Positions 5,695 through 15,827 of a DNA stretch of 32,000 nucleotides are shown piece after piece. The notes beneath the pieces were generated by a model. The model ran no database searches. It saw nothing but the letters and a program-made list of their open reading frames with translations, and was not told where the DNA came from. The stretch's first letter is position 1, and each line of letters starts with the position of its first letter. The translations under genes and the position numbers were made by a program. Source of the stretch: Nitrospira sp. (GTDB lineage Bacteria > Nitrospirota > Nitrospiria > Nitrospirales > Nitrospiraceae); assembly GCA_036984345.1 (NCBI GenBank), contig BQXA01000006.1, forward strand, positions 37,586 to 69,585, read 5' to 3'.

Positions 5695-6126
5695 ATGGAC
5701 GCGTTGAAGCACGCGATTGATTATGGAGTGATCGGCCTTCTCCTGGTCTTGAGCCTCTGGTCCGTGGCAGTCGCAATCGAACGGTGGCTGTTCTACAAGC
5801 GAATCGATCTCTCTCGGTTTTCCAATGCTCAATTACTGGAGATCACGCTCACAAAACGACTGGTGATCATCGGGACCGTGGCCGCCAATGCCCCGTATAT
5901 CGGTCTCCTCGGAACCGTCCTTGGGATCATGTTAACCTTCCATACGATGGGAACCTCAGGTACGATGGCGGTCAACACCATCATGATCGGCTTGAGTCTC
6001 GCTTTGAAGGCGACAGCCGTCGGTCTCCTGGTTGCTATTCCCTGTGTCGTCATGAACAATCTGCTTCGCCGTCGTGTCACCGAGCTTTTGACCGAATACA
6101 AGGCCCAACATGGACCGGAACATTGA
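5695..6126 (+). CDS. exbB: ExbB/TolQ/MotA-family proton channel (short form)
   Basis: 143 aa with 3 TM segments and the motif 'APYIGLLGTVLGIMLTF', typical of the ExbB/TolQ family. ExbD and TonB genes follow. AAGGAG lies upstream of the ATG. Confidence 0.8.
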   Translation: MDALKHAIDYGVIGLLLVLSLWSVAVAIERWLFYKRIDLSRFSNAQLLEITLTKRLVIIGTVAANAPYIGLLGTVLGIMLTFHTMGTSGTMAVNTIMIGLSLALKATAVGLLVAIPCVVMNNLLRRRVTELLTEYKAQHGPEH

Positions 6127-6484: not shown

Positions 6485-7368
6485 TGGACCACTCGGTTCC
6501 GCTTCCTCATTCGACAGGTCCAGTGACAGCAAGTTGGCTCATCTCATGCCTACTGCACGCGGCATTGGCCATGGCCGCACTGTTCTTCGTTCAAAACCTG
6601 CAACTTGCGCCTCAAGCTGACCCCTTTCAGTGGGACGTCGCGGTAGTCGCGCCGCACTCCAGTTCGGTACAGTCCACACCTGCTGTTCAACCGACATCTC
6701 TACCTACACCGGCCATTCAGCCACCTGCGCCATCACAAACATCGGTTTCTGCAACGAGACAGTCGGTTGAACCAGCAAGAACGGAACCGCCTCCTCCCCC
6801 AAAATCCGAGTCCTGGCCAGATTCCTCTCAAGATCAGCTGTTTCAGTCCGAACCACCGCCATCAACCACAACACCCACTTTCTCAGCTGAGTCACTGTCT
6901 ACCGTCCCTCCGCAGGTTCTGTCATCTACTCCATCCGAGCAGGCCGCCCGTCCGCACGATGAGTCACCTACCGTGACAGATTCGCCACCACAGGTAGCAT
7001 CTCCACTGAATCCTTCATCTCCCACGATGGCTTCCATCTCACCCGTTGATCGAGTCAAGTCGACCAAAGCCGATTACGGATGGCTGGCTGCTATCATGGC
7101 GCAATGGATCGAGGACCTGAACAAGCGATACCCTGCGATGCTTCGCACCGAAGGGGTGGAGGGGAAGGTAACATTGGCGGCAACTCTTCATGAAAACGGA
7201 CGACTCAGCGACGTGCGTGTAGTGAAGAGCTCAGGCTCTACCGCCCTCGATCAAGTGGCAGTAGAAGACGTACGGAACGGCCCACCGATAGATCTCGCCT
7301 ATCCACTCGGCCGAGATCAAATACCGGTGAAGTTTTCCATTAGTTACGACCTGAAAACTGCTCGATAA
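6484..7368 (+). CDS. tonB: TonB energy transducer
   Basis: An N-terminal TM anchor, a long Pro/Ser/Thr-rich spacer and a C-terminal TonB-type domain ('YPAMLRTEGVEGKVTLAATLHENGRLSDVRVVKSSGSTALDQVA'). The ATG overlaps the exbD stop (TGATG). Confidence 0.8.
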   Translation: MDHSVPLPHSTGPVTASWLISCLLHAALAMAALFFVQNLQLAPQADPFQWDVAVVAPHSSSVQSTPAVQPTSLPTPAIQPPAPSQTSVSATRQSVEPARTEPPPPPKSESWPDSSQDQLFQSEPPPSTTTPTFSAESLSTVPPQVLSSTPSEQAARPHDESPTVTDSPPQVASPLNPSSPTMASISPVDRVKSTKADYGWLAAIMAQWIEDLNKRYPAMLRTEGVEGKVTLAATLHENGRLSDVRVVKSSGSTALDQVAVEDVRNGPPIDLAYPLGRDQIPVKFSISYDLKTAR

Positions 7369-7382
7369 CACCCACGACCAGC

Positions 7383-8420
7383 TTAGGGCATACCGAGTCG
7401 ATTCCGGAGCCCTGATGAAACTGTCATCGTTCCCTCAGCATCAATAATGACGGCTTCCACATCTGGTAAGCTTTCGACCAGTGCCATCCCCTCCTCGGGC
7501 CCCAGGACAAAAATTCCCGTATCCAATCCATCGGCCACAACCCCTTCCCTAGCGATGATAGTGACGCTCTGACAGGCCCGTGCCGGCTGCAAGGTCTGAG
7601 GAGACAGGATATGATGATACCGGACTCCGTCCCGCATGAAAAATCGCTCATAGTCTCCAGCGGTGGAGATGGCCTCATCCATTAACTCAAGAATTGCGAT
7701 CAGCTCGCCTTCTTTGCGAGGATGCTTGATCCCTACAGGAAACCCATGACCTTCCGGAGGCATTCCAAACGTTTTGATATCGCCCGATATGGCGACCACT
7801 CCGCCTCTCGCTCCTGCTCGTTTCATCTCCGCCACCGCCCGATCAGCAGCATAGCCCTTGCCAATTCCTCCAATGTCGATTCGCATTCCCTTGCGCGGAA
7901 GGAAAATAGTTTGTGTCACCTTATTCACTTGAATACTCGTCCAATCGACGAGTGGCTTTAACTGTTGCAACTCCAGCTCATCTGGAATGTGCTGTCGTTC
8001 GGTGGCGCTCCAAGCGGCAACAGCAGGACCAAGAGCAATATTAAACCCACCACGGGTCAGCTGCGCCATATCCAGAGAGCGGATCACCAGCTCGAACGTC
8101 TCCTGGCTCACCTTCACAGCTCGAAGGCCGGCTTCCGCATTGACCTGCGACAGCTCAGTATCAGGACGCCAGGTGCTCAATAACTGTTCAAGTCGCTTGA
8201 TCTCATTGAATCCTGCCCGCATAGCCCGTTCACTGACAGACGAATTCGGTGCCACAACTGTGAGGGTAACCAAGGTGCCCATGTGCATCTGAGCGCGTTT
8301 AGCCACTACGGATTCAGATACCGGGTGCGCTGCTCCACAACCGGCCAGCACGGTGATCATGAGACCAAACACCATTCTATTGAACGCCGCACGTGCCCTA
8401 GGTGTGCACATCATGATCAA
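7383..8420 (-). CDS. apbE: FAD:protein FMN transferase ApbE (lipoprotein)
   Basis: 345 aa with the lipobox 'VLAGC' and the ApbE hallmark 'IDIGGIGKGYAADRA', plus 'GDYERFF...RYHHILSP'. It starts 4 nt after the stop of the upstream ORF (8425-9090). Confidence 0.9.
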   Translation of the reverse strand: MIMMCTPRARAAFNRMVFGLMITVLAGCGAAHPVSESVVAKRAQMHMGTLVTLTVVAPNSSVSERAMRAGFNEIKRLEQLLSTWRPDTELSQVNAEAGLRAVKVSQETFELVIRSLDMAQLTRGGFNIALGPAVAAWSATERQHIPDELELQQLKPLVDWTSIQVNKVTQTIFLPRKGMRIDIGGIGKGYAADRAVAEMKRAGARGGVVAISGDIKTFGMPPEGHGFPVGIKHPRKEGELIAILELMDEAISTAGDYERFFMRDGVRYHHILSPQTLQPARACQSVTIIAREGVVADGLDTGIFVLGPEEGMALVESLPDVEAVIIDAEGTMTVSSGLRNRLGMP

Positions 8421-8424
8421 CCTC

Positions 8425-9090
8425 TTACCACCAATGTCGGCGAAACATCCTGGGATATCGTGAATAGGGCATCACTTCGTAGAGCCGTGCTTCCACCTGC
8501 ATTGGTTGTGGAAGTTCTTCGACAATTGGGCGTCCTTTGAAATCTGGATACCGCTCTGTCACCAAGTCCAGGGCCCTTGCGGTTTCTGCGTGGTCAAGAG
8601 CCACAGAAGCTACCACCATTCGGCCATAGCGGGGCGAATCCACTCCGAATTTCCATGTGCCGACGCAGGTCACAGCGGCAGCATCAACCGTAAAGGTCGT
8701 CGAGAGCTCTGCCATGGAGAGAAACGGCCCTTCGCTAATCTGTACCCTGGTGAGTCGATACCTTCCGGGTGGCAGACTGATGGCAAAAGTTTGATCAGGT
8801 GAATCGACCTCTACTTGAAATCGTTTGTGAGATTCCTGGTGCTCCAATTCTAGAAACCGCATTTCTGGTAGATACCGTCTTGCCCTGTCTCCGGTCAGAA
8901 ATGTCACCACACGTCCCACGACCAAGCTGTTTGTCACATCAGTCGGGTCTACCATCGATGATACGTGCCTGGCGCAACTCCATACACCACAAAGGAGCAT
9001 CGGGACGAGGGCATAGAAAACCAATGACTTCTGGTTGATGGACTGGAGAGAAAACCTGCGACCTGAGGAACGTCCAAGGCAGCTATCCAT
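8425..9090 (-). CDS. Hypothetical exported/anchored protein, co-transcribed with apbE
   Basis: 221 aa with an N-terminal hydrophobic segment ('LVFYALVPMLLCGVWSCA'). The block 'GRVVTFLTGD...FAISLPPGRYRLTRV' loosely resembles a carboxypeptidase-regulatory-like beta-sandwich. I recognise no family with confidence. Confidence 0.6.
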   Translation of the reverse strand: MDSCLGRSSGRRFSLQSINQKSLVFYALVPMLLCGVWSCARHVSSMVDPTDVTNSLVVGRVVTFLTGDRARRYLPEMRFLELEHQESHKRFQVEVDSPDQTFAISLPPGRYRLTRVQISEGPFLSMAELSTTFTVDAAAVTCVGTWKFGVDSPRYGRMVVASVALDHAETARALDLVTERYPDFKGRPIVEELPQPMQVEARLYEVMPYSRYPRMFRRHWW

Positions 9091-9105
9091 ATCTCATTTT
9101 CCCGC

Positions 9106-9135
9106 TTGACAATAAAGGATCTCCTGGGATATTAA
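9106..9135 (+). promoter_or_regulatory. Candidate sigma70 promoter for the plus-strand operon
   Basis: TTGACA (9106-9111), an 18-nt spacer, then TATTAA (9130-9135). The -10 element is embedded in the Fur box. On the opposite strand a perfect TATAAT (plus coordinates 9153-9158) could serve the divergent hyp-apbE operon. Confidence 0.4.
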
Positions 9136-9146
9136 TAATCGTTCTC
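9128..9146. promoter_or_regulatory. Fur box
   Basis: 'GATATTAATAATCGTTCTC' matches 15/19 positions of the classical consensus GATAATGATAATCATTATC. It sits in the divergent intergenic region, overlaps the candidate -10, and a fur gene lies 7.4 kb upstream. Confidence 0.6.
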
Positions 9147-9175
9147 AATTTCATTATACTAGTTCGATTGACGCC

Positions 9176-9355
9176 ATGGCCATTGCAAAAGCTCCTTCGT
9201 TAGAACCATGCCACCCCCTGGAGACGCGCTGCGAGTGTGGGCAATTGATCGCCAAAGTCTGCAACCAGGGTCTTGAACTAAAGTGCAAACGATGTAAGCG
9301 CATGGTCGTCATCCCCTTCTCCTCAATCGAGGGTTGGGGAACCGGTCCATCCTAA
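9176..9355 (+). CDS. Small (59 aa) Com-like zinc-ribbon protein, absent from the supplied ORF track
   Basis: Runs from ATG 9176 to TAA 9353-9355. The translation is MAIAKAPSLEPCHPLETRCECGQLIAKVCNQGLELKCKRCKRMVVIPFSSIEGWGTGPS. The pattern 'RCxC..LIAKV....LELKCKRCKR..VI' resembles the phage Mu Com zinc finger (RCxxC..LLaK....iEiKCpRC). There is no obvious Shine-Dalgarno, so coding status is uncertain. Confidence 0.35.
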   Translation: MAIAKAPSLEPCHPLETRCECGQLIAKVCNQGLELKCKRCKRMVVIPFSSIEGWGTGPS

Positions 9356-9486
9356 GGTATTTGCGAAAGGAGGAAGCGCAGTCCTATTTGAAATTGTACT
9401 CATGCGAGTGTGTTGTTTTCTAGAAGACCAGAGACCGTCGAGTCCCGAGTCAAACCCATACACTTACTCATATATGGAGGATACCC

Positions 9487-10977
9487 ATGAAGATGCGGTT
9501 TATCCTCGGGGCTCTTCTGATCATCGGCTTATCGGCATCGCCGGTTTTGGCTGACAATTTGACCCCAGAGGAAATCAAAAAATTGGTTGATGAAGCAGTA
9601 GAAAAACGGCTTCAAGAACATGAACGGATGGAACGGCCGATGGAACGCTTGGAAGAGACAGCCCCTATGGACGAACCCGGGGTTGGTGCTCTTCCTAAAG
9701 TCGGCAAGGAGCGTCGTACAGACCGCCAGGCTCCCTTGTCGTTCGGAACAAGCGGATCAGGCCGGCTTATCTACGCCAAACCTTTCGTGTCATTCCCCAA
9801 AGCGATCGTCGGTGGCTATTTCGACCTTCAATATCGCATTCACCGCCAACCGGTGATTGAAACGGGCTATGGAGATATCAGAAACAATCAAGGTACAACA
9901 AATGGCTTTGACCAACAGCGATTTGTTCCGTTCATCTATGCGGATATTACCGAACATGTGAAATTTGCCTCGGAAATCGAAATTGAACATGGGATCCGCG
10001 GCATCAGCGACAACGAGATCAGTCTGGAATTCGCCCATATCGACTACCTGATTAATGAGAAAATCAACCTGCGAGGAGGTATCGTCCTCATCCCCCTTGG
10101 CAAATTTAACCTCTTGCACGATTCTCCCCTCAACGACTTAACGGATCGGCCGCTTGTCAGCCGGTTGATCATTCCGTCGACCATGGCGGAAACAGGCGCA
10201 GGTTTGTACGGAACGTTCTATCCTGGTCGCACCGGGAAACTAGATTATGAAGTCTACGTGACAACTGGTCCTTGCGGTTATCTCAATGACGGTACGCCCC
10301 GGATAAACGAGGAAAAGGGGACAGCGAATACTCGTCAAAGGAAATGTTTTTCTGATGACGGGTTCGACATCAATAACGGGAAGGCCGTCTCGGGACGTCT
10401 GGCGTTCAGTCCGATGCTGGGTGTGGAAGTCGCTGGATCCGGATATTTTGGAAACCAGTCCCCATCCAGTTATAACCCTCTGAGCATTTTTGCCGTAGAT
10501 TGGACTCTGCAACGGGGACCCTTTGAACTCATCGGTGAGGCAGCCTGGGCCCATGCACGAAACAACACTCGAGCCATCCCTGGAAGCACATTCAATGGAT
10601 TTTCACCGGGGTCCCTTCTAACCGGTGTTGGCACAATAAATCCTCTCGGCCTACCTCCCGAAAGGATGCAAGGCTTTTACATTCAAGGCAATTATCACTT
10701 CATGCCTTCGTTCCTCACGAAACTTTCCCCAAAACGTTTTGGTGAGGGTTCAACCTTCACGGCAGTCATTCGGTATGACCGAGTCAACTTGAACCTAGGC
10801 AACAAGGGTGAAAATGCCGGGGAATTGGAACAAATTTCGTTCGGTTTGAACTATCGCCCTGTCGAGGATGCCGTGGTCAAGATGAGCTATCAGTATCTGC
10901 CGAAATCATTTAACCCAAATGATGGACAGCGCATTCATGATAGTGCCTTTGTTGTTTCAGTCGCATCGTATTTTTAG
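9487..10977 (+). CDS. Outer-membrane beta-barrel protein, porin-like (resembles phosphate-selective porin O/P family)
   Basis: 496 aa with signal peptide 'ALLIIGLSASPVLA', an N-terminal coiled-coil segment, alternating beta-strand pattern and a C-terminal 'VSVASYF' aromatic terminus typical of OMPs. 'FAHIDYLINEKINLRGGIVLIPLGKFN' resembles the Porin_O_P core. GGAGGA lies 5 nt upstream of the ATG. Confidence 0.7.
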   Translation: MKMRFILGALLIIGLSASPVLADNLTPEEIKKLVDEAVEKRLQEHERMERPMERLEETAPMDEPGVGALPKVGKERRTDRQAPLSFGTSGSGRLIYAKPFVSFPKAIVGGYFDLQYRIHRQPVIETGYGDIRNNQGTTNGFDQQRFVPFIYADITEHVKFASEIEIEHGIRGISDNEISLEFAHIDYLINEKINLRGGIVLIPLGKFNLLHDSPLNDLTDRPLVSRLIIPSTMAETGAGLYGTFYPGRTGKLDYEVYVTTGPCGYLNDGTPRINEEKGTANTRQRKCFSDDGFDINNGKAVSGRLAFSPMLGVEVAGSGYFGNQSPSSYNPLSIFAVDWTLQRGPFELIGEAAWAHARNNTRAIPGSTFNGFSPGSLLTGVGTINPLGLPPERMQGFYIQGNYHFMPSFLTKLSPKRFGEGSTFTAVIRYDRVNLNLGNKGENAGELEQISFGLNYRPVEDAVVKMSYQYLPKSFNPNDGQRIHDSAFVVSVASYF

Positions 10978-10983
10978 GAACGT

Positions 10984-11010
10984 GGGGAGGTCGGTCGAGC
11001 CGACCTCCCC
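10984..11010 (+). other. Intercistronic GC-rich stem-loop (no U-tract)
   Basis: 'GGGGAGGTCGG' tcgag 'CCGACCTCCCC' forms an 11-bp perfect stem with a 5-nt loop. It lies 7 nt after the OMP stop and 17 nt before the next start. Likely an mRNA-stabilising or partial-termination element. Confidence 0.5.
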
Positions 11011-11027
11011 AAACACTCGAATAGGAA

Positions 11028-11486
11028 TTGGCCATGCGTATAACTCTTCTCCTTCCATTTCTTGCATTGACGGGTTGCGTTTCATTGAGCGGTAGCCGAG
11101 ATCATACCGTTGTCTGCCCCTACGACACGGTATGGGAAGCAGCATCAGAAACCATGCAAGGCTACTCGGTGAGCTCAGAGAACAAGACGAATGGGACGAT
11201 TGAAACTGCCTGGGTTGAAATGGAGGGGGAAAGACGACCTTACGGTCTCTTCGCGCGTGAGGGCTTCGGCAACCGTGAACGAGCCCGTCTCACGGTCGTC
11301 GTCAAGAACAACAATGGCGTATCCTCAGTGAATGTCCTCGAAACGAGGCAACGCTGGCATGCTAAAGGCGGGGCAACCCAACAAGCAACCAGATGGTGGC
11401 CGGTCGAGCCTTCAGAAGCAGTGCTGGACGAGATTACTACCAAGCTCAATGATCGCCTCAAAGAAAAAGGATGTGCAGGGACCTGA
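11028..11486 (+). CDS. Hypothetical lipoprotein
   Basis: 152 aa with the signal peptide plus lipobox 'LLLPFLALTGC'. I recognise no family. Confidence 0.7.
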   Translation: MAMRITLLLPFLALTGCVSLSGSRDHTVVCPYDTVWEAASETMQGYSVSSENKTNGTIETAWVEMEGERRPYGLFAREGFGNRERARLTVVVKNNNGVSSVNVLETRQRWHAKGGATQQATRWWPVEPSEAVLDEITTKLNDRLKEKGCAGT

Positions 11487-12157
11487 TGATTACCAGCCTT
11501 TTCCTTTTATTCATGACCCTTACCCTATTGCCGTCTCCCTCAAATGGCGCTGAACGGATCTGGGATAATGACCTCAAACGCTTTCTCACCGATCAGGAGA
11601 TGATGATGGCCGAGGTCTACCTTCAGGAAGAAGAGGGACTCAAAATTATGTTCCCGAATTCTGAGCGGGTTCGCAAGGAACTCATCTCGCTTAATCCTGA
11701 GAAGAAGTCCATCATTCAAGAACGTATCGGCTGGAAATTTCCGGAAGAATCATTTGAAGTCTATATCGGAGAATCCGGAACCCAGATTGACGGCTATGCG
11801 GTCGTACAAAATACCATCGGCAAACATAAACCCATGACCTACATGGTCGGTATCGATAATAGAGGCTTCGTCTCAGACGTTGAACTTCTTGTCTTCCGTG
11901 AAGCCCGTGGAAGCGAGGTTCGACAGAAGCGATTCAATGCTCAGTATGAAGGAAAGTCGGTCCTCGATCCGGTGCGCATCAACAAGGATATCATCAATAT
12001 CAGCGGTGCCACGATGTCCGTCAGGTCCATGAGTGCCGGAATTAAACGCGTGCTCGTGCTAATTGATGAGTTCTATCTGAAGCCCGCTGGAATCGGCAGC
12101 GACACACTAGCCGCCAAGAAGGACAAGGGGTTTTTCCCGTCGATATTTGGAAATTAA
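11486..12157 (+). CDS. Secreted FMN-binding-domain protein (NqrC/RnfG/NosR-type FMN_bind), predicted ApbE substrate
   Basis: Signal peptide 'MITSLFLLFMTLTLLPSPSNGA'. The domain block is 'GKHKPMTYMVGIDNRGFVSDVELLVFREARGSEVRQKRFNAQYEGK...DIINISGATMSVRSMSAGIKRVL'. It contains the S-G-A-T-x-S flavinylation core. The ATG overlaps the upstream stop (TGATG at 11484-11488). Confidence 0.8.
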   Translation: MITSLFLLFMTLTLLPSPSNGAERIWDNDLKRFLTDQEMMMAEVYLQEEEGLKIMFPNSERVRKELISLNPEKKSIIQERIGWKFPEESFEVYIGESGTQIDGYAVVQNTIGKHKPMTYMVGIDNRGFVSDVELLVFREARGSEVRQKRFNAQYEGKSVLDPVRINKDIINISGATMSVRSMSAGIKRVLVLIDEFYLKPAGIGSDTLAAKKDKGFFPSIFGN

Positions 12158-12182
12158 TCGAAGCGGACCCCGCGTCCCCGAC

Positions 12183-12692
12183 ATGCGTAACTTCAACCAG
12201 AAATTCAGACTTCGTGATTCCGATCGTCACATTCGGCTCTTATATACGTTGTTTCTGCTCTTGATGTTCGTCGGTTTTTGTTTTTCATTTTTTTGGGCAC
12301 ATAGCATGACCGGATTATCACCGCAAGGCATCGCTGAGCACTACCGAGGATCTGATGCGACCTTCGGCGAGCCGATGTCGTTCCGAGAACTGGCGGAGAT
12401 CACCCACTTCCATCTATTTACGATGCCGGTGGTCTTCATGATCCTGATTCACGTGATGTACCTGACCAGCGTCAGCCATACCCTCAAAGCGATCGTCACC
12501 TGGGCTGGGTTCGGGGGCGTGATGCTTGACCTCGCGTCACCTTGGCTGATCAGCTACGTCTCTCCTAGCTTTGTCCTGTTGATGCTGACCGGTGATACCC
12601 TGATGACGCTTAGTTTTTTGGTCATGATGGTGGTCCCTCTCTATGAAATGTGGATACTCGGACAACCGTTGATGGGAGGGAAGCGCTCCTAA
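12183..12692 (+). CDS. His-rich 4-TM integral membrane protein of unknown function
   Basis: Four hydrophobic helices with His in or near the helices ('FFWAHSM', 'EITHFHLFTMP', 'ILIHVMYL', 'SVSHT'). ATG 12183 is preferred over the TTG at 12147, which overlaps the upstream gene. Confidence 0.7.
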   Translation: MRNFNQKFRLRDSDRHIRLLYTLFLLLMFVGFCFSFFWAHSMTGLSPQGIAEHYRGSDATFGEPMSFRELAEITHFHLFTMPVVFMILIHVMYLTSVSHTLKAIVTWAGFGGVMLDLASPWLISYVSPSFVLLMLTGDTLMTLSFLVMMVVPLYEMWILGQPLMGGKRS

Positions 12693-12750
12693 GAAGCGAG
12701 ACCACCGGCATTAATTCTAGTCTTCTTTAGCGGCCAGCGGTTTTTCACCC

Positions 12751-12793
12751 AGAGCCCAGGATCACACCGATGATCCTGGGCTCTTTGTTTTTT
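12751..12793 (+). terminator. Rho-independent terminator
   Basis: AGAGCCCAGGATC (12751-12763), an 8-nt loop and GATCCTGGGCTCT (12772-12784) form a perfect 13-bp stem. TTGTTTTTT follows. It lies 59 nt after the 12692 stop. Confidence 0.85.
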
Positions 12794-12805
12794 GGAGGTG
12801 ACATT

Positions 12806-13486
12806 ATGCAGTTCGATACCGATGCGGTCGACGTTTCCCAAACGACTGTAATGAGACTTCAACGCATGCTCAAGAAGATCGACCGTGTCTGTCTTCCTCC
12901 AACATCGCGGCGTGATCTGGAGAGCATCCTCGTTCGGCAAGTGGCACACGAATTAGATCGGCTTCTCCCCTGGCAAGCGGGGCATGGACAGGCCACGGCT
13001 GCGATCGCACTGGAGCTCGGACGGGCCCTCCACCTAGAAGACGAAAAGTTGCATCAGCTCAGGTTGGCCTCTCTGCTACACGACATCGGTATTCTCATGC
13101 TTCCACCTTGCCTACAGAGCAGACGGGAGTGGCATGAGCCGGAGTCGTATGTGGCGATGCAGAATCACCCTCGCCTGGGCGCGATGCTACTGGAACCGTT
13201 TTCTTTTCTCCGTGAAGCCACGGTGATGATCGCCCATCACCACGAACGGTGGGATGGCTCTGGGTATCCCTATGGTCTCAGAGGGCAGCTGATTCCGTTG
13301 GGAGCGAGAATTCTCGCCATCGCGGATGCATTCGATGCCATACAGGTTCCCCATGTTCAAGAACGATCGCTCCGCGATCGCATCGCTCTCCGAATCCTTC
13401 GTGTCGCTTCGGGCACGCAGTTTGATCCCATGGTCGTCGAGACCTTAGAAGTCCTGGTTGCCGATGGTTATGCCAGACATGTCTGA
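12806..13486 (+). CDS. HD-GYP domain protein (probable c-di-GMP phosphodiesterase)
   Basis: Motifs 'LLHDIGILMLP' (HD) and 'HHERWDGSGYPYGL' (GYP). ATG 12806 is preceded by GGAGGTG. The track start at 12770 lies inside the upstream terminator hairpin and is rejected. Confidence 0.85.
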   Translation: MQFDTDAVDVSQTTVMRLQRMLKKIDRVCLPPTSRRDLESILVRQVAHELDRLLPWQAGHGQATAAIALELGRALHLEDEKLHQLRLASLLHDIGILMLPPCLQSRREWHEPESYVAMQNHPRLGAMLLEPFSFLREATVMIAHHHERWDGSGYPYGLRGQLIPLGARILAIADAFDAIQVPHVQERSLRDRIALRILRVASGTQFDPMVVETLEVLVADGYARHV

Positions 13487-13535
13487 ATCTCATCTCATTG
13501 GATCCACAGCCGGCGTCCGCCCTACGCCGGCCTCA

Positions 13536-13609
13536 AAGTGGGAGGCCCACCCCTCCCACTTTACCAGGCAAGGGTCCTCGCCTCCCGAGGACCCTTGCCT
13601 CCCATTTTT
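13536..13609 (+). terminator. Tandem hairpins downstream of the HD-GYP gene (probable terminator)
   Basis: Hairpin 1 is AAGTGGGAGG/CCTCCCACTT (13536-13561, 10-bp stem). Hairpin 2 is CAAGGGTCCTCG/CGAGGACCCTTG (13569-13597, 12-bp stem, 5-nt loop). ATTTTT follows 7 nt later, and that offset from the stem lowers confidence. Confidence 0.5.
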
Positions 13610-13763: not shown

Positions 13764-15500
13764 ATGAGTTCTAACAGTATCGCGAAGCGAATGCAGACCT
13801 CTCTGGCATTGAGTGGCTCAATACTTTTCCTCGCAGGGGTAGTTGCATGCTCCGGAGAGGAAACATCCCCTCCCTCTCCATCTCTTGCCTCCACCGGAAC
13901 TCCCGGTGCTGAAGAGGCGGTCGGTGAACGTCTGTTTCTTGAAACTCGATTCGCCCAATCATTCAAGGTGTCTTTGGATAACGGCGGTAATATCAACGAC
14001 CCGAATATCAGTGACAGAGTCGTTGATACCGTTCAAACCATGGGTGCGCCGATCGACCCAGGGCCGTTCAAGGGTTTGTCCATGAATTGCCGGGCCTGTC
14101 ATTTAGTCGATGACGTGCTGGATTCGCCGGGAGGCGGCATGCGAACTTACACGGACCTTGCGCGACGCAGCCCCCTCCCGGCCAGAGCGGACGGCAAAAC
14201 TGTTGCCGTCCGCAATTCTCCACCTTTGGTCAACTCCACACTCAATCGACCAGGAGGTGTCCTGCTCCATTTCGATGCAGAGTTCAACTCAATAGAAGAG
14301 TTGGTCGCAGCTACCTTCACCGGTAGAAACTTTGGCTGGCTACCTGGAGAACGCGCACAGGCCATTGCCCATATCGCCAAAGTGGTTCGAGGGGATGATG
14401 GCTCCTTTGATCTAACCGACACGGGTTTATCCTACCGGATACTGTTTACCGGAACGAACCCGAACATTCCTGAAGAGTTGAGGCTGCCTCCTGAATTCCG
14501 CGCGTTCGTCGGCTCCTCGACTGACCAGGAAGTATTCGATGCCGTCGTCAAGGTCGTCGCCGCCTATGTCAACGGTCTCCTGTTCTCTCAAACCGAAGAC
14601 AGCGGAGCGCCGATCCGCTCTCCCTTCGATGTGTTCCTCGCAACCAACGGCCTCCCACAAGCCCCGGATTCCAACGAATCTCCCCTCAACTACAGCCGTC
14701 GCCTGCTACAACTGATCAACTCTCGTGAGTCGGCTGGTACGCTTCAGCTTGTCACCTCGAATCCCAATAGAACCGACGGTCAATTCCAGTTTCACACCCA
14801 GCCCTTCTCATTTGGAGCGCAGGAATTGACCGGGTTGAAGATATTTCTCGCGGAACCGGCGGCACTACCTGCCTCCCCAGAGGAACTGGAGATTGGGACA
14901 ATTGGGAACTGCCTTTCGTGTCATGCCGCACCGAATTTCACAGATTTCAAGGCCCATAATACGGGCATCACCCAGAAAGAGTATGACGAGATACCCGGAC
15001 ATGGGAACGGTGCCTTTCTCAATTTATCAATTCCCACACTTGCCACACGAACAGTTGATGATCTGCCGGCCACCGAACAACATCCGACGGCCGGAGAGCG
15101 ATTCCGTGCGGTTCCCGCTCCCGGTACGACGTTGACCGATCTGGGCCTATGGAACGTCTTTGCCAATCCCGACATGCCCGAGCCACAAGACAAGATCCGA
15201 AACATGCTCTGTGACGATGAGCAACCCTGCTCCATCGCTCAGAGCGAGCTTCTGAATCGAGCGATCGCCCGATTCAAGACGCCCGGGCTTCGCGATCTAG
15301 GGCATTCCGCGCCATTCATGCACACCGGTCAATTCGATACACTCGAGGATGTGATCAGATTTTATATTGAGATGGCCGATCTTGCTCGCGACGGCCAACT
15401 TCGGAATGGCGCCACCCAGCTACAGGGTATCTCGCTCATTGAAGAAGACGTCGTGTCGCTCGTTGCCTTTCTTACATCACTGAACGAGGACTATCAGTAG
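13764..15500 (+). CDS. Di-heme cytochrome c peroxidase / MauG-family lipoprotein (enlarged)
   Basis: 578 aa with lipobox 'LAGVVAC' and two heme c motifs, 'CRACH' and 'CLSCH'. The C-terminal block 'FKTPGLRDLGHSAPFMHTGQFDTLEDVIRFY' is typical of the CCP/MauG family. Confidence 0.8.
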   Translation: MSSNSIAKRMQTSLALSGSILFLAGVVACSGEETSPPSPSLASTGTPGAEEAVGERLFLETRFAQSFKVSLDNGGNINDPNISDRVVDTVQTMGAPIDPGPFKGLSMNCRACHLVDDVLDSPGGGMRTYTDLARRSPLPARADGKTVAVRNSPPLVNSTLNRPGGVLLHFDAEFNSIEELVAATFTGRNFGWLPGERAQAIAHIAKVVRGDDGSFDLTDTGLSYRILFTGTNPNIPEELRLPPEFRAFVGSSTDQEVFDAVVKVVAAYVNGLLFSQTEDSGAPIRSPFDVFLATNGLPQAPDSNESPLNYSRRLLQLINSRESAGTLQLVTSNPNRTDGQFQFHTQPFSFGAQELTGLKIFLAEPAALPASPEELEIGTIGNCLSCHAAPNFTDFKAHNTGITQKEYDEIPGHGNGAFLNLSIPTLATRTVDDLPATEQHPTAGERFRAVPAPGTTLTDLGLWNVFANPDMPEPQDKIRNMLCDDEQPCSIAQSELLNRAIARFKTPGLRDLGHSAPFMHTGQFDTLEDVIRFYIEMADLARDGQLRNGATQLQGISLIEEDVVSLVAFLTSLNEDYQ

Positions 15501-15552: not shown

Positions 15553-15777
15553 ATGAAATCCCGTTGCTCCTCAGATTCGTTCGTTATGACCTGCCGACGC
15601 TGTCACAAATTGATCTGCCACGAAAATCCCCAACTCTGGTGCATACGGTGTCGCGGGATCCACCGCCAACGAGGGCAAGCGAGAGGACTCGCCAGGTCGA
15701 TGAGGATTCGACGAATCAAGGCTTGGTTGAACAGGTTATTGAGAGAACTGAATGGACCACGACTAAACCCCGGATAA
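15553..15777 (+). CDS. Small basic zinc-ribbon protein (74 aa), hypothetical
   Basis: ATG 15553 is preceded by AAAGGTG. The product contains 'TCRRCHKLICHENPQLWCIRCRG' (CxxC...CxxC) followed by an Arg-rich helix. A strong terminator lies 50 nt downstream. Overlapping alternative ORFs exist in other frames. Confidence 0.35.
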   Translation: MKSRCSSDSFVMTCRRCHKLICHENPQLWCIRCRGIHRQRGQARGLARSMRIRRIKAWLNRLLRELNGPRLNPG

Positions 15778-15827
15778 TCGTTCACATTTGCAATTAGCAC
15801 GAAGGCGGCCAACAGGACTACACGTCC

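Follow-up and report, generated by a model that had tools for sequence, protein, structure and literature searches.

A candidate Fur-regulated, flavin-based envelope module of Nitrospira with a porin-like barrel and the membrane family Aq_1264_TM

Nitrospira species are key nitrifiers of soils, waters, and wastewater plants with a high iron demand, and flavinylated extracytosolic electron-transfer systems are a recently recognized bacterial theme. Here, we ask what function is encoded by a Nitrospira sp. locus in which genes for the flavin transferase ApbE, an exported FMN_bind protein, a porin-like outer-membrane protein, and a protein with four transmembrane helices (4-TM) of the family Aq_1264_TM (PF27139) lie around a Fur-like box. 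The locus occupies positions 7383 to 12794 of a 32,000-nucleotide stretch of contig BQXA01000006.1 (hereafter, the window). A previous interpretation of the same DNA, made without database searches (the sequence-only reading), had proposed an undescribed extracytoplasmic module for flavin redox chemistry or iron acquisition. We put at roughly 0.5 the probability that the locus encodes a periplasmic redox module of the cell envelope, flavin based and repressed by Fur, that helps the cell to acquire iron; its predicted iron-regulated, flavin-related character is well supported by comparison across related and distant loci.

The predicted Fur-type operator and the conserved core

The predicted promoter and operator (9106 to 9154, plus strand) comprise a −35 hexamer (TTGACA, 9106 to 9111), a 16-nt spacer, and a −10 hexamer (GATATT, 9128 to 9133) overlapped by GATATTAATAATCGTTCTC (9128 to 9146), a 15/19 match to the Fur consensus of Escherichia coli. 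This is the only site in the window that matches at 15 or more of the 19 positions, compared to an expectation of 0.04 in shuffled sequence. About 47 of 64 Nitrospiraceae loci share exactly this 19-mer. When 62 upstream regions were aligned, at least 95% conservation was confined to the −35 hexamer and a 27-nt block (GATATTAATAATCGTTCTCAATTTCAT), which includes the Fur box and ends at 9154; the remaining spacer and the flanks vary. We read this block as a clear phylogenetic footprint of a putative operator lying over the −10 hexamer and the transcription start. Two weaker Fur-like sites (13/19) are also present in the window, one at 1730 to 1748, just upstream of an fbpA-like gene (start 1781), and the other at 15773 to 15791, about 250 nt upstream of a DUF5122 beta-propeller gene (start 16020).

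Fur-like boxes also accompany distant copies of the module. A metagenome scan with a divergent, N-terminally extended 4-TM clade as the query returned 80 loci, and sites of at least 14/19 were counted over the 516 kb that these loci cover. Of 40 such boxes, 32 lay no more than 120 nt from the 5′ end of an FMN_bind or porin open reading frame (ORF), a space amounting to 3% of the sequence (2.08 boxes per kb versus 0.016 per kb elsewhere; ∼130-fold enrichment). These data argue that the module is under a Fur-type operator, to which Fur is predicted to bind. The Fur control that the sequence-only reading had proposed from the window's box is thus supported by a footprint within Nitrospiraceae and by enrichment outside it, and the link to iron, which recurs across phyla as Fur-like boxes and as iron-transporter neighbors, is stronger than the earlier reader could have known.

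Pfam assigns the genes upstream of the module to fur, an FbpABC-type solute-binding protein, permease, and ATPase, exbB, exbD, and tonB, consistent with the earlier placement of the locus directly after fur-fbpABC-exbBD-tonB. A genome scan with the 4-TM protein kept only Nitrospiraceae loci, 80 of them (4-TM identity, 78 to 99%). In these loci, fbpC-exbB-exbD-tonB come first, next apbE and the gene for a 221-aa protein on the opposite strand, then the genes for a 59-aa protein, the porin, a lipoprotein, the FMN_bind protein, and the 4-TM protein, followed by HD-GYP and MauG/MbnH-like genes. This order is preserved wherever the contigs reach far enough, and the module genes are accordingly syntenic in related genomes.

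A 4-TM profile search of a 5.8-billion-protein set for distant relatives returned almost only Nitrospira. Named relatives, on whose few cluster members the lineages of distant Aq_1264_TM proteins rest, belong to Nitrospirota, Nitrospinae, Bacteroidota, Deltaproteobacteria, Planctomycetota, and Binatia, and the Pfam name adds Aquifex. The conserved core is porin, FMN_bind, and Aq_1264_TM, often with ApbE; gene order is shuffled, and fusions occur. The "five plus two" gene set put forward as the unit by the sequence-only reading is therefore replaced by this core, with or without ApbE. Loci L085/L086, L002, and L089 encode a porin (28% identity; E = 7e-32), FMN_bind, and 4-TM, again with or without ApbE, and L170 carries cupredoxin, porin, FMN_bind, 4-TM, and ApbE genes. 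Iron transporters appear alongside: a Bacteroidota metagenome-assembled genome (MAG; L171) has fur-feoA-feoB, three more genes, and then porin, FMN_bind, 4-TM, and ApbE; a Nitrospinae locus (L173) has fbpB-fbpC, P19, porin, FMN_bind, a frameshifted ApbE, and 4-TM; and in a deltaproteobacterial MAG (L088), the 4-TM gene lies ∼0.8 kb downstream of genes for an outer-membrane channel, an FTR1/FtrD-like protein, and a MacB-type ABC system. No siderophore or TonB-dependent receptor gene was found beside the module in the loci examined. The apbE gene of L173 (5864 to 6980, plus strand) is split into two overlapping ORFs by a frameshift or an assembly error, and L088 contains a degenerate, partial Aq_1264_TM copy (5778 to 5987, plus strand) just upstream of the intact gene.

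Within the distant metagenomic clade, FMN_bind and 4-TM form the most regular pair. An FMN_bind gene lies upstream of 4-TM, usually directly adjacent, in 41 of the 50 loci with at least 900 nt of upstream sequence, and 5 of the other 9 contigs break off inside an adjacent porin gene or shortly upstream of one. A porin is adjacent in 25 loci, in three gene orders.

Predicted Fur control would also be compatible with iron sparing, that is, with a flavin-based periplasmic carrier that replaces a cytochrome-based one under iron limitation and has no direct role in uptake. A functional redundancy between flavinylation and cytochromes has been described (PMC8238504), and Fur-regulated flavodoxin offers a precedent (PMC545781). 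Nevertheless, such a replacement would leave unexplained both the conserved, dedicated porin and the repeated linkage to iron transporters in five lineages, and we give it the least credence of the explanations weighed here.

The same transporters bear on the direction of electron flow. Were the module to run in reverse, it would oxidize periplasmic Fe(II) in the manner of a ferroxidase, pass the electrons via flavin to the membrane, and deliver Fe(III) for FbpA-, P19-, or FTR1-type uptake. The Fe(III) or oxidase-permease character of several neighbors (FbpABC here; P19, FTR1/FtrD-like, and cupredoxin genes elsewhere) fits this proposal, and the flow in such systems has been noted to be potentially reversible (PMC8238504). 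However, the module also adjoins FeoAB, a ferrous transporter; FMN is by textbook redox chemistry a poor oxidant of Fe(II) at neutral pH; and the habitats of Nitrospira are oxic, with scarce Fe(II). We strongly doubt the reversed direction and favor flavin-based reduction in the periplasm.

The flavin transferase, its predicted substrate, and the four-helix protein

The apbE gene (7383 to 8420, minus strand) encodes an FAD:protein FMN transferase that matches Pfam PF02424 over the whole profile (positions 1 to 266 of 266; E = 5.2e-80; 269 bits versus a cutoff of 25.6) and the NCBIfam ApbE model (E = 8e-42). Its N-terminus, MVFGLMITVLAGC, contains a lipobox (LAGC), predicting an extracytosolic protein, and the gene is syntenic in most Nitrospiraceae loci. 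The FMN_bind gene (11486 to 12157, plus strand) specifies a protein with an N-terminal hydrophobic signal and a Pfam FMN_bind match (E = 9e-7; 29.9 bits versus a cutoff of 22). Over 98% of its length, the protein is about 100% identical to NCBI entries of Nitrospira sp., in line with the Nitrospira origin of the window. In the sequence-only reading, this was a 224-aa exported FMN_bind product with the motif NISGATMS; export, family, and motif stand, and the length becomes 223 aa after homologue comparison reset the start to ATG 11486. The motif D-I-x-x-[IV]-[ST]-G-A-T-x-S is kept, with D168, I169, G174, A175, T176, and S178 invariant in this protein and eight distant sequences, and SGAT is present in 51 of 52 distant metagenomic homologues. 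The FMN_bind protein is thus predicted to be the ApbE substrate, with FMN on Thr176 of ISGAT. Co-encoding of a flavin transferase and its putative substrate, proposed earlier for the window alone, goes further in relatives: in L004, an ApbE-FMN_bind fusion is followed by Aq_1264_TM. Fusions of Aq_1264_TM with ApbE also occur (P0292 and P0352), and each has an extra hydrophobic segment between the two domains, consistent with a periplasmic ApbE.

A MATE-family transporter recurs beside the FMN_bind/4-TM pair in about 10 distant loci (for example, L142, 9347 to 10837, minus strand). The MATE proteins of Shewanella and E. coli include flavin exporters, and such a neighbor could supply FAD for flavinylation. 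Together with the two fusion representatives and the presence of a free as well as a fused copy in L002, these exporters would suit a nonredox Aq_1264_TM that traffics flavin or helps ApbE, either exporting or presenting FAD or presenting the substrate protein. Small membrane proteins of a Listeria electron-transfer locus reportedly proved to be flavin traffickers (PMC9973259). In the 80-locus distant clade, however, 4-TM is tightly coupled to FMN_bind and ApbE occurs in no locus; moreover, the conserved residues of Aq_1264_TM are His/Glu clusters at both membrane faces, with no nucleotide- or flavin-binding signature among them. A trafficking or helper role consequently appears very unlikely to us, and we return to Aq_1264_TM as a candidate electron-transfer partner of the flavoprotein.

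The 4-TM gene occupies 12183 to 12692 on the plus strand (169 aa from ATG 12183, the most likely start as judged from homologues). Its assignment to PF27139 comes through precomputed labels on homologues (80 to 93% identity). This uncharacterized Pfam family is named for an Aquifex aeolicus ORF and comprises 568 clusters or representatives at 50% identity; a literature search on aq_1264 and PF27139 found no paper mentioning it. Across 51 diverse members, three residues are invariant: the Gly of a periplasmic Y-R-G loop and both His of an HxH motif, which sits within "THFH" at the start of the second transmembrane helix (TM2). Of 118 full-length representatives, 73% have an acidic residue three positions ahead of HxH, and 71% have a third His 13 residues deeper (the His of "LIHVMY"). 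A second conserved polar cluster, formed by a His and the Glu/Trp of PLxEMW, is on the cytoplasmic side. Of the three His motifs singled out by the sequence-only reading as possible heme ligands, "THFH" is upheld as invariant in its HxH, "LIHVMY" holds in part (∼71%), and "WAHS" falls away as not conserved. From the positive-inside rule, both termini are predicted to be cytoplasmic and HxH to face the periplasm. In one clade (L092 to L139), the periplasmic loop before ELLEVTHFH carries an acidic, Pro-rich insertion of 30 to 80 residues (GP..LDLPDD).

An AlphaFold2 model of the 4-TM protein is a confident four-helix bundle (pLDDT 93). Foldseek found no match to this model in the PDB below E = 2, phmmer and profile searches against the PDB returned nothing meaningful, and neither the window protein nor the 51 relatives matched MsrQ, PepSY, DUF4405, cytochrome b561, other cytochrome b, ferric reductase, or transporter families at E values up to 1. 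A bis-His diheme cytochrome b would be recognized by four conserved His on at least two helices, or by a likeness in fold or sequence, and Aq_1264_TM has neither feature. A homodimer could supply bis-His ligation. FezC has been proposed to build DUF4405-like heme-binding sites through homodimerization (PMC11334425), and by speculative analogy, the way in which HxH and the third His are spaced along a single helix would fit a pair of hemes held between two protomers. It is just as conceivable that E-x-x-H-x-H forms a metal site or binds quinol.

A metal site leads to a different account, in which Aq_1264_TM handles metal as an oligomeric permease for Fe(II) or another metal, or as a membrane metal site, and carries no electrons. 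Ions would be taken up at the periplasmic E-x-x-H-x-H and released from the inner His/Glu pair, and the flavoprotein would draw electrons from a partner encoded elsewhere. The invariant HxH with its acidic residue at −3 (73%) recalls a 2-His-1-carboxylate site, the PLxEMW cluster provides conserved polar residues at the cytoplasmic face, and published flavinylated clusters often contain a ferrous transporter such as VIT1 or FTR1. On the other hand, a separate iron transporter adjoins the module in every lineage, making a second permease redundant; a 170-aa four-helix bundle offers no obvious pore; and the flavoprotein would be left without an electron source, unlike in all characterized FMN_bind systems. 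We consider metal handling unlikely and retain electron transfer through Aq_1264_TM as the preferred role.

The barrel, the lipoprotein, and accessory elements

The porin gene (9487 to 10977, plus strand) encodes a 496-aa protein that begins with a signal peptide, has a coiled-coil segment in its N-terminal part, and ends in Phe; it is homologous to proteins of ∼350 to 520 aa in distant loci (E = 7e-32 to 1e-94). The protein itself has no Pfam match at E values up to 1, and 10 of 14 homologues match Porin_O_P (PF07396); a Nitrospira orthologue (L008) scores 22.6 bits versus a gathering cutoff of 20.9, over profile positions 7 to 329 of 370. By way of these homologues, the porin-like outer-membrane protein of the sequence-only reading can be kept as a predicted porin-like barrel remotely related to Porin_O_P. 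A single-sequence AlphaFold model was unusable (pLDDT 31), and sequence and profile searches of the PDB with the porin gave nothing meaningful.

A porin of this kind has been predicted before. Rodionov et al. (2004; PMC545781) described "psp" of Geobacter metallireducens and Desulfuromonas as a hypothetical porin that is preceded by Fur boxes and has a homologue in Aquifex aeolicus, and they proposed a role in iron transport. The window's porin resembles psp in its upstream Fur box, in the weak similarity to PF07396 that its homologues show, and in its link to Aquifex aeolicus, the organism behind the name Aq_1264_TM; it differs in its company, since psp was described as a single gene and the flavoprotein, ApbE, and 4-TM partners are not mentioned there. 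By description, not by sequence, the window porin probably belongs to the psp family. On that footing, the porin of the locus had already been predicted to be Fur regulated in 2004, which qualifies the earlier view of the locus as undescribed.

The porin's accessory partner is a 152-aa lipoprotein (11028 to 11486, plus strand; lipobox LTGC), found in 74 Nitrospiraceae loci. Its family matches (DUF3576/NlpB) are weak and below significance, and it recurs in few distant loci, with a similar protein after the porin in L089 and a lipobox protein in L173. The lipoprotein switches allelic type along with the porin. Identity between types is ∼45% for the porin, ∼34% for the lipoprotein, and ∼70% for FMN_bind (versus >80% within types), compared to 80 to 95% for 4-TM. 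This pattern suggests that the three envelope proteins (porin, lipoprotein, and FMN_bind) co-evolve. The window's porin/lipoprotein type has a Cys pair (TGPCGY...RQRKC), and the other type is without it. Genes flanking the two allelic cassettes are 80 to 95% identical between loci. The cassettes suggest either co-evolving, surface-exposed partners or cassette exchange.

Raw plus-strand ORFs on the ORF map run from 9176 to 9355, 9487 to 10977, 11028 to 11486, 11471 or 11486 to 12157, and 12147 to 12692. The lipoprotein and FMN_bind genes meet in a stop/start overlap (TGATG, 11484 to 11488), and an intrinsic terminator closes the operon (12751 to 12794, plus strand), with a hairpin spanning 12751 to 12784 (14-bp stem with 8 G-C pairs; 6-nt loop) followed by a T-run. 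On the minus strand, apbE and the 221-aa ORF are separated by 4 nt. ORF, motif, and hairpin checks found the ORFs, the TGATG overlap, the terminator, and the 15/19 Fur box where the sequence-only reading had placed them. Downstream of the terminator lie an HD-GYP ORF (12770 to 13486, plus strand), whose annotated ATG falls inside the terminator hairpin, so that its true start is probably further downstream, and a gene for a 578-aa MauG/MbnH-like diheme protein (13764 to 15500, plus strand); both show conserved synteny across most Nitrospiraceae loci.

The operon opens (9176 to 9355, plus strand) with the gene for the 59-aa protein. The core of this protein (residues 16 to 55, with CxC...CxxC cysteines) shows at least 95% conservation across 63 distinct orthologues. 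With a gene at this position, the noncoding divergent region shrinks to ∼85 bp, and the 396-bp shared control region described earlier does not hold. The core presumably resembles the Com zinc ribbon of phage Mu, and the protein may be an RNA-binding, posttranscriptional regulator of the operon. A prophage origin was rejected, as the gene is syntenic and behind the Fur promoter in all Nitrospiraceae loci. Between this gene and the porin start, a leader block of ∼30 nt (AGACCAGAGACCGTCGAGTCCCGAGTCA; 9424 to 9453, plus strand) shows at least 95% conservation across 57 Nitrospiraceae loci of both porin types. It has no stable predicted fold (z = +0.83), and an Rfam search of positions 7000 to 13600 returned no RNA family. 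The block is possibly a regulatory element targeted by the Com-like protein. On the opposite strand, the accessory gene at 8425 to 9090 encodes the 221-aa protein, probably an exported lipoprotein to judge from Cys39, which follows a hydrophobic segment and is invariant; the gene is present in 29 Nitrospiraceae loci. Only weak transthyretin-like matches (1.5e-3, in three of seven members) were obtained for this protein, and PDB searches with it gave nothing meaningful. Both the 221-aa and the 59-aa proteins were seen only in Nitrospiraceae loci.

Proposed mechanism and relation to known systems

We propose the following sequence of events, for which we infer flavinylation, membrane topology, electron transfer by Aq_1264_TM, the direction of electron flow, and the porin substrate. 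Under iron scarcity, Fur would leave the operator over the −10 hexamer, and the Com-like protein, porin, lipoprotein, FMN_bind protein, and Aq_1264_TM would be transcribed. ApbE, as a periplasmic lipoprotein, would link FMN covalently to Thr176 of the FMN_bind protein after its export, and the resulting flavoprotein would dock on Aq_1264_TM. The latter would tie the flavoprotein to the membrane electron pool, either through quinol directly or through a cofactor of the HxH...H helix (possibly heme, in a dimer). The Porin_O_P-like barrel, in Nitrospira aided by the lipoprotein, would admit an iron species, probably anionic; ferric iron, free or chelated, would be reduced in the periplasm by the reduced flavin; and the iron would be passed to the neighboring transporter, FbpABC here and FeoAB, P19, or FTR1 elsewhere. 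We favor this reading as the most economical because in all characterized FMN_bind proteins the flavin acts as an electron relay linking a membrane partner with an acceptor outside the cytosol and because a link between flavinylation and assimilatory iron reduction has been published (PMC8238504). Flavinylated gene clusters are also known to co-localize with iron transporters (PMC8238504), and a PepSY/DUF2271/DUF4198/ApbE cluster of Caulobacter is induced 12- to 51-fold by iron limitation or fur deletion (PMC3751524).

Several observations weigh against this mechanism. The conserved histidines of Aq_1264_TM are on one helix only (TM2), it has no conserved cysteines, and no redox cofactor can be assigned to it; it is unlike MsrQ, PepSY, DUF4405, cytochrome b561, or any PDB entry; and either the third His or the acidic residue ahead of HxH is missing from about one-quarter of the family representatives. 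The cluster encodes no cytoplasmic or quinone-linked electron donor, and the adjacent FbpABC transports Fe(III), not Fe(II). In the distant clade, ApbE is nearby in none of the 80 metagenome loci, and a porin is present in only about half of the well-flanked ones.

How does the module relate to characterized systems? Profile searches of Pfam and NCBIfam agree with the sequence-only reading that the combination is not Nqr, Rnf, NosR, FtrABCD/P19, or MsrPQ. A remnant of Rnf or Nqr was rejected, as NCBIfam RnfG models score 16 to 25 bits versus cutoffs of 102 to 230 and the other subunits are not in the window; the FMN_bind protein nonetheless shares with RnfG and NqrC the FMN_bind fold, an N-terminal hydrophobic segment, and an SGAT Thr as the site of ApbE-attached FMN (predicted here). 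A NosR-like identity was likewise rejected, since the FMN_bind protein has no fused membrane or Fe-S domain. By Pfam, P19 (PF10634) and FTR1 (PF03239) of the FtrABCD/P19-FTR1 systems are absent from the window; they are neighbors of the module elsewhere (P19 in L173; FTR1/FtrD-like in L088). Literature searches on Nitrospira ApbE, and on Fur with porin and FMN binding, found no description of the module, and the supplement text of the eLife paper PMC8238504 has no Nitrospira or PF07396 entry.

Closer in composition are the PepSY/DUF2271/DUF4198/ApbE clusters (Caulobacter CC_3059-3063; the Pseudomonas PepSY protein FoxB, PDB 7ABW), for which assimilatory iron reduction has been proposed (PMC8238504). 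Both kinds of locus combine ApbE, a secreted flavinylated protein (predicted here), and a small inner-membrane partner. However, the substrate here is FMN_bind instead of DUF2271, Aq_1264_TM has no PepSY_TM match in 51 members, a Porin_O_P-like barrel belongs to the core, and DUF4198 is absent, the 221-aa protein being weakly transthyretin-like.

As an analogy only, MtrCAB and other porin-cytochrome (PCA) conduits also pair an outer-membrane barrel genetically with a redox protein in the periplasm and a partner in the inner membrane; they differ in having multiheme cytochromes, of which there are none here, and in the family of the barrel. A bolder version of our mechanism would make the porin, flavoprotein, and Aq_1264_TM a single trans-envelope complex, with Aq_1264_TM as a homodimeric diheme or other cofactor-bearing carrier and the flavoprotein inserted into or docked onto the porin, so that extracellular or porin-bound Fe(III) is reduced and mobilized. 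We regard this version as decidedly unlikely; if true, it would be a flavin-based counterpart of porin-cytochrome conduits for iron assimilation in many Gram-negative phyla.

For the periplasmic redox module as proposed, close relatives are the flavinylation-associated classes of the Light laboratory (PMC8238504, PMC11334425), which likewise combine ApbE with a flavinylated protein outside the cytosol and a partner that spans the membrane, often beside iron transporters. Profiles for their membrane classes (NapH-like; MsrQ-like, PF01794; PepSY-like, PF03929 and PF16357; DsbD, PF02683; NqrB/RnfD-like; and DUF4405) had no match in the window protein or the 51 members at E values up to 1. In contrast to the published cytochromes with four centrally placed His, Aq_1264_TM has four helices with His on one. 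The module is of the same kind as the flavinylation-associated systems of Meheust et al. (2021) and Huang et al. (2024), Aq_1264_TM falls outside their six classes, and a dedicated porin is new for such systems. Aq_1264_TM points to a further widespread class of flavinylation membrane partner, in at least six phylum-level groups and the first with its own porin, marked by Fur in its predicted regulation and by iron transporters in its neighborhood. The module would be a concrete candidate for iron acquisition in Nitrospira and other bacteria; the orphan Pfam family PF27139 gains a context, and the Fur-regulated porin predicted in 2004 would be widened to a multicomponent system.

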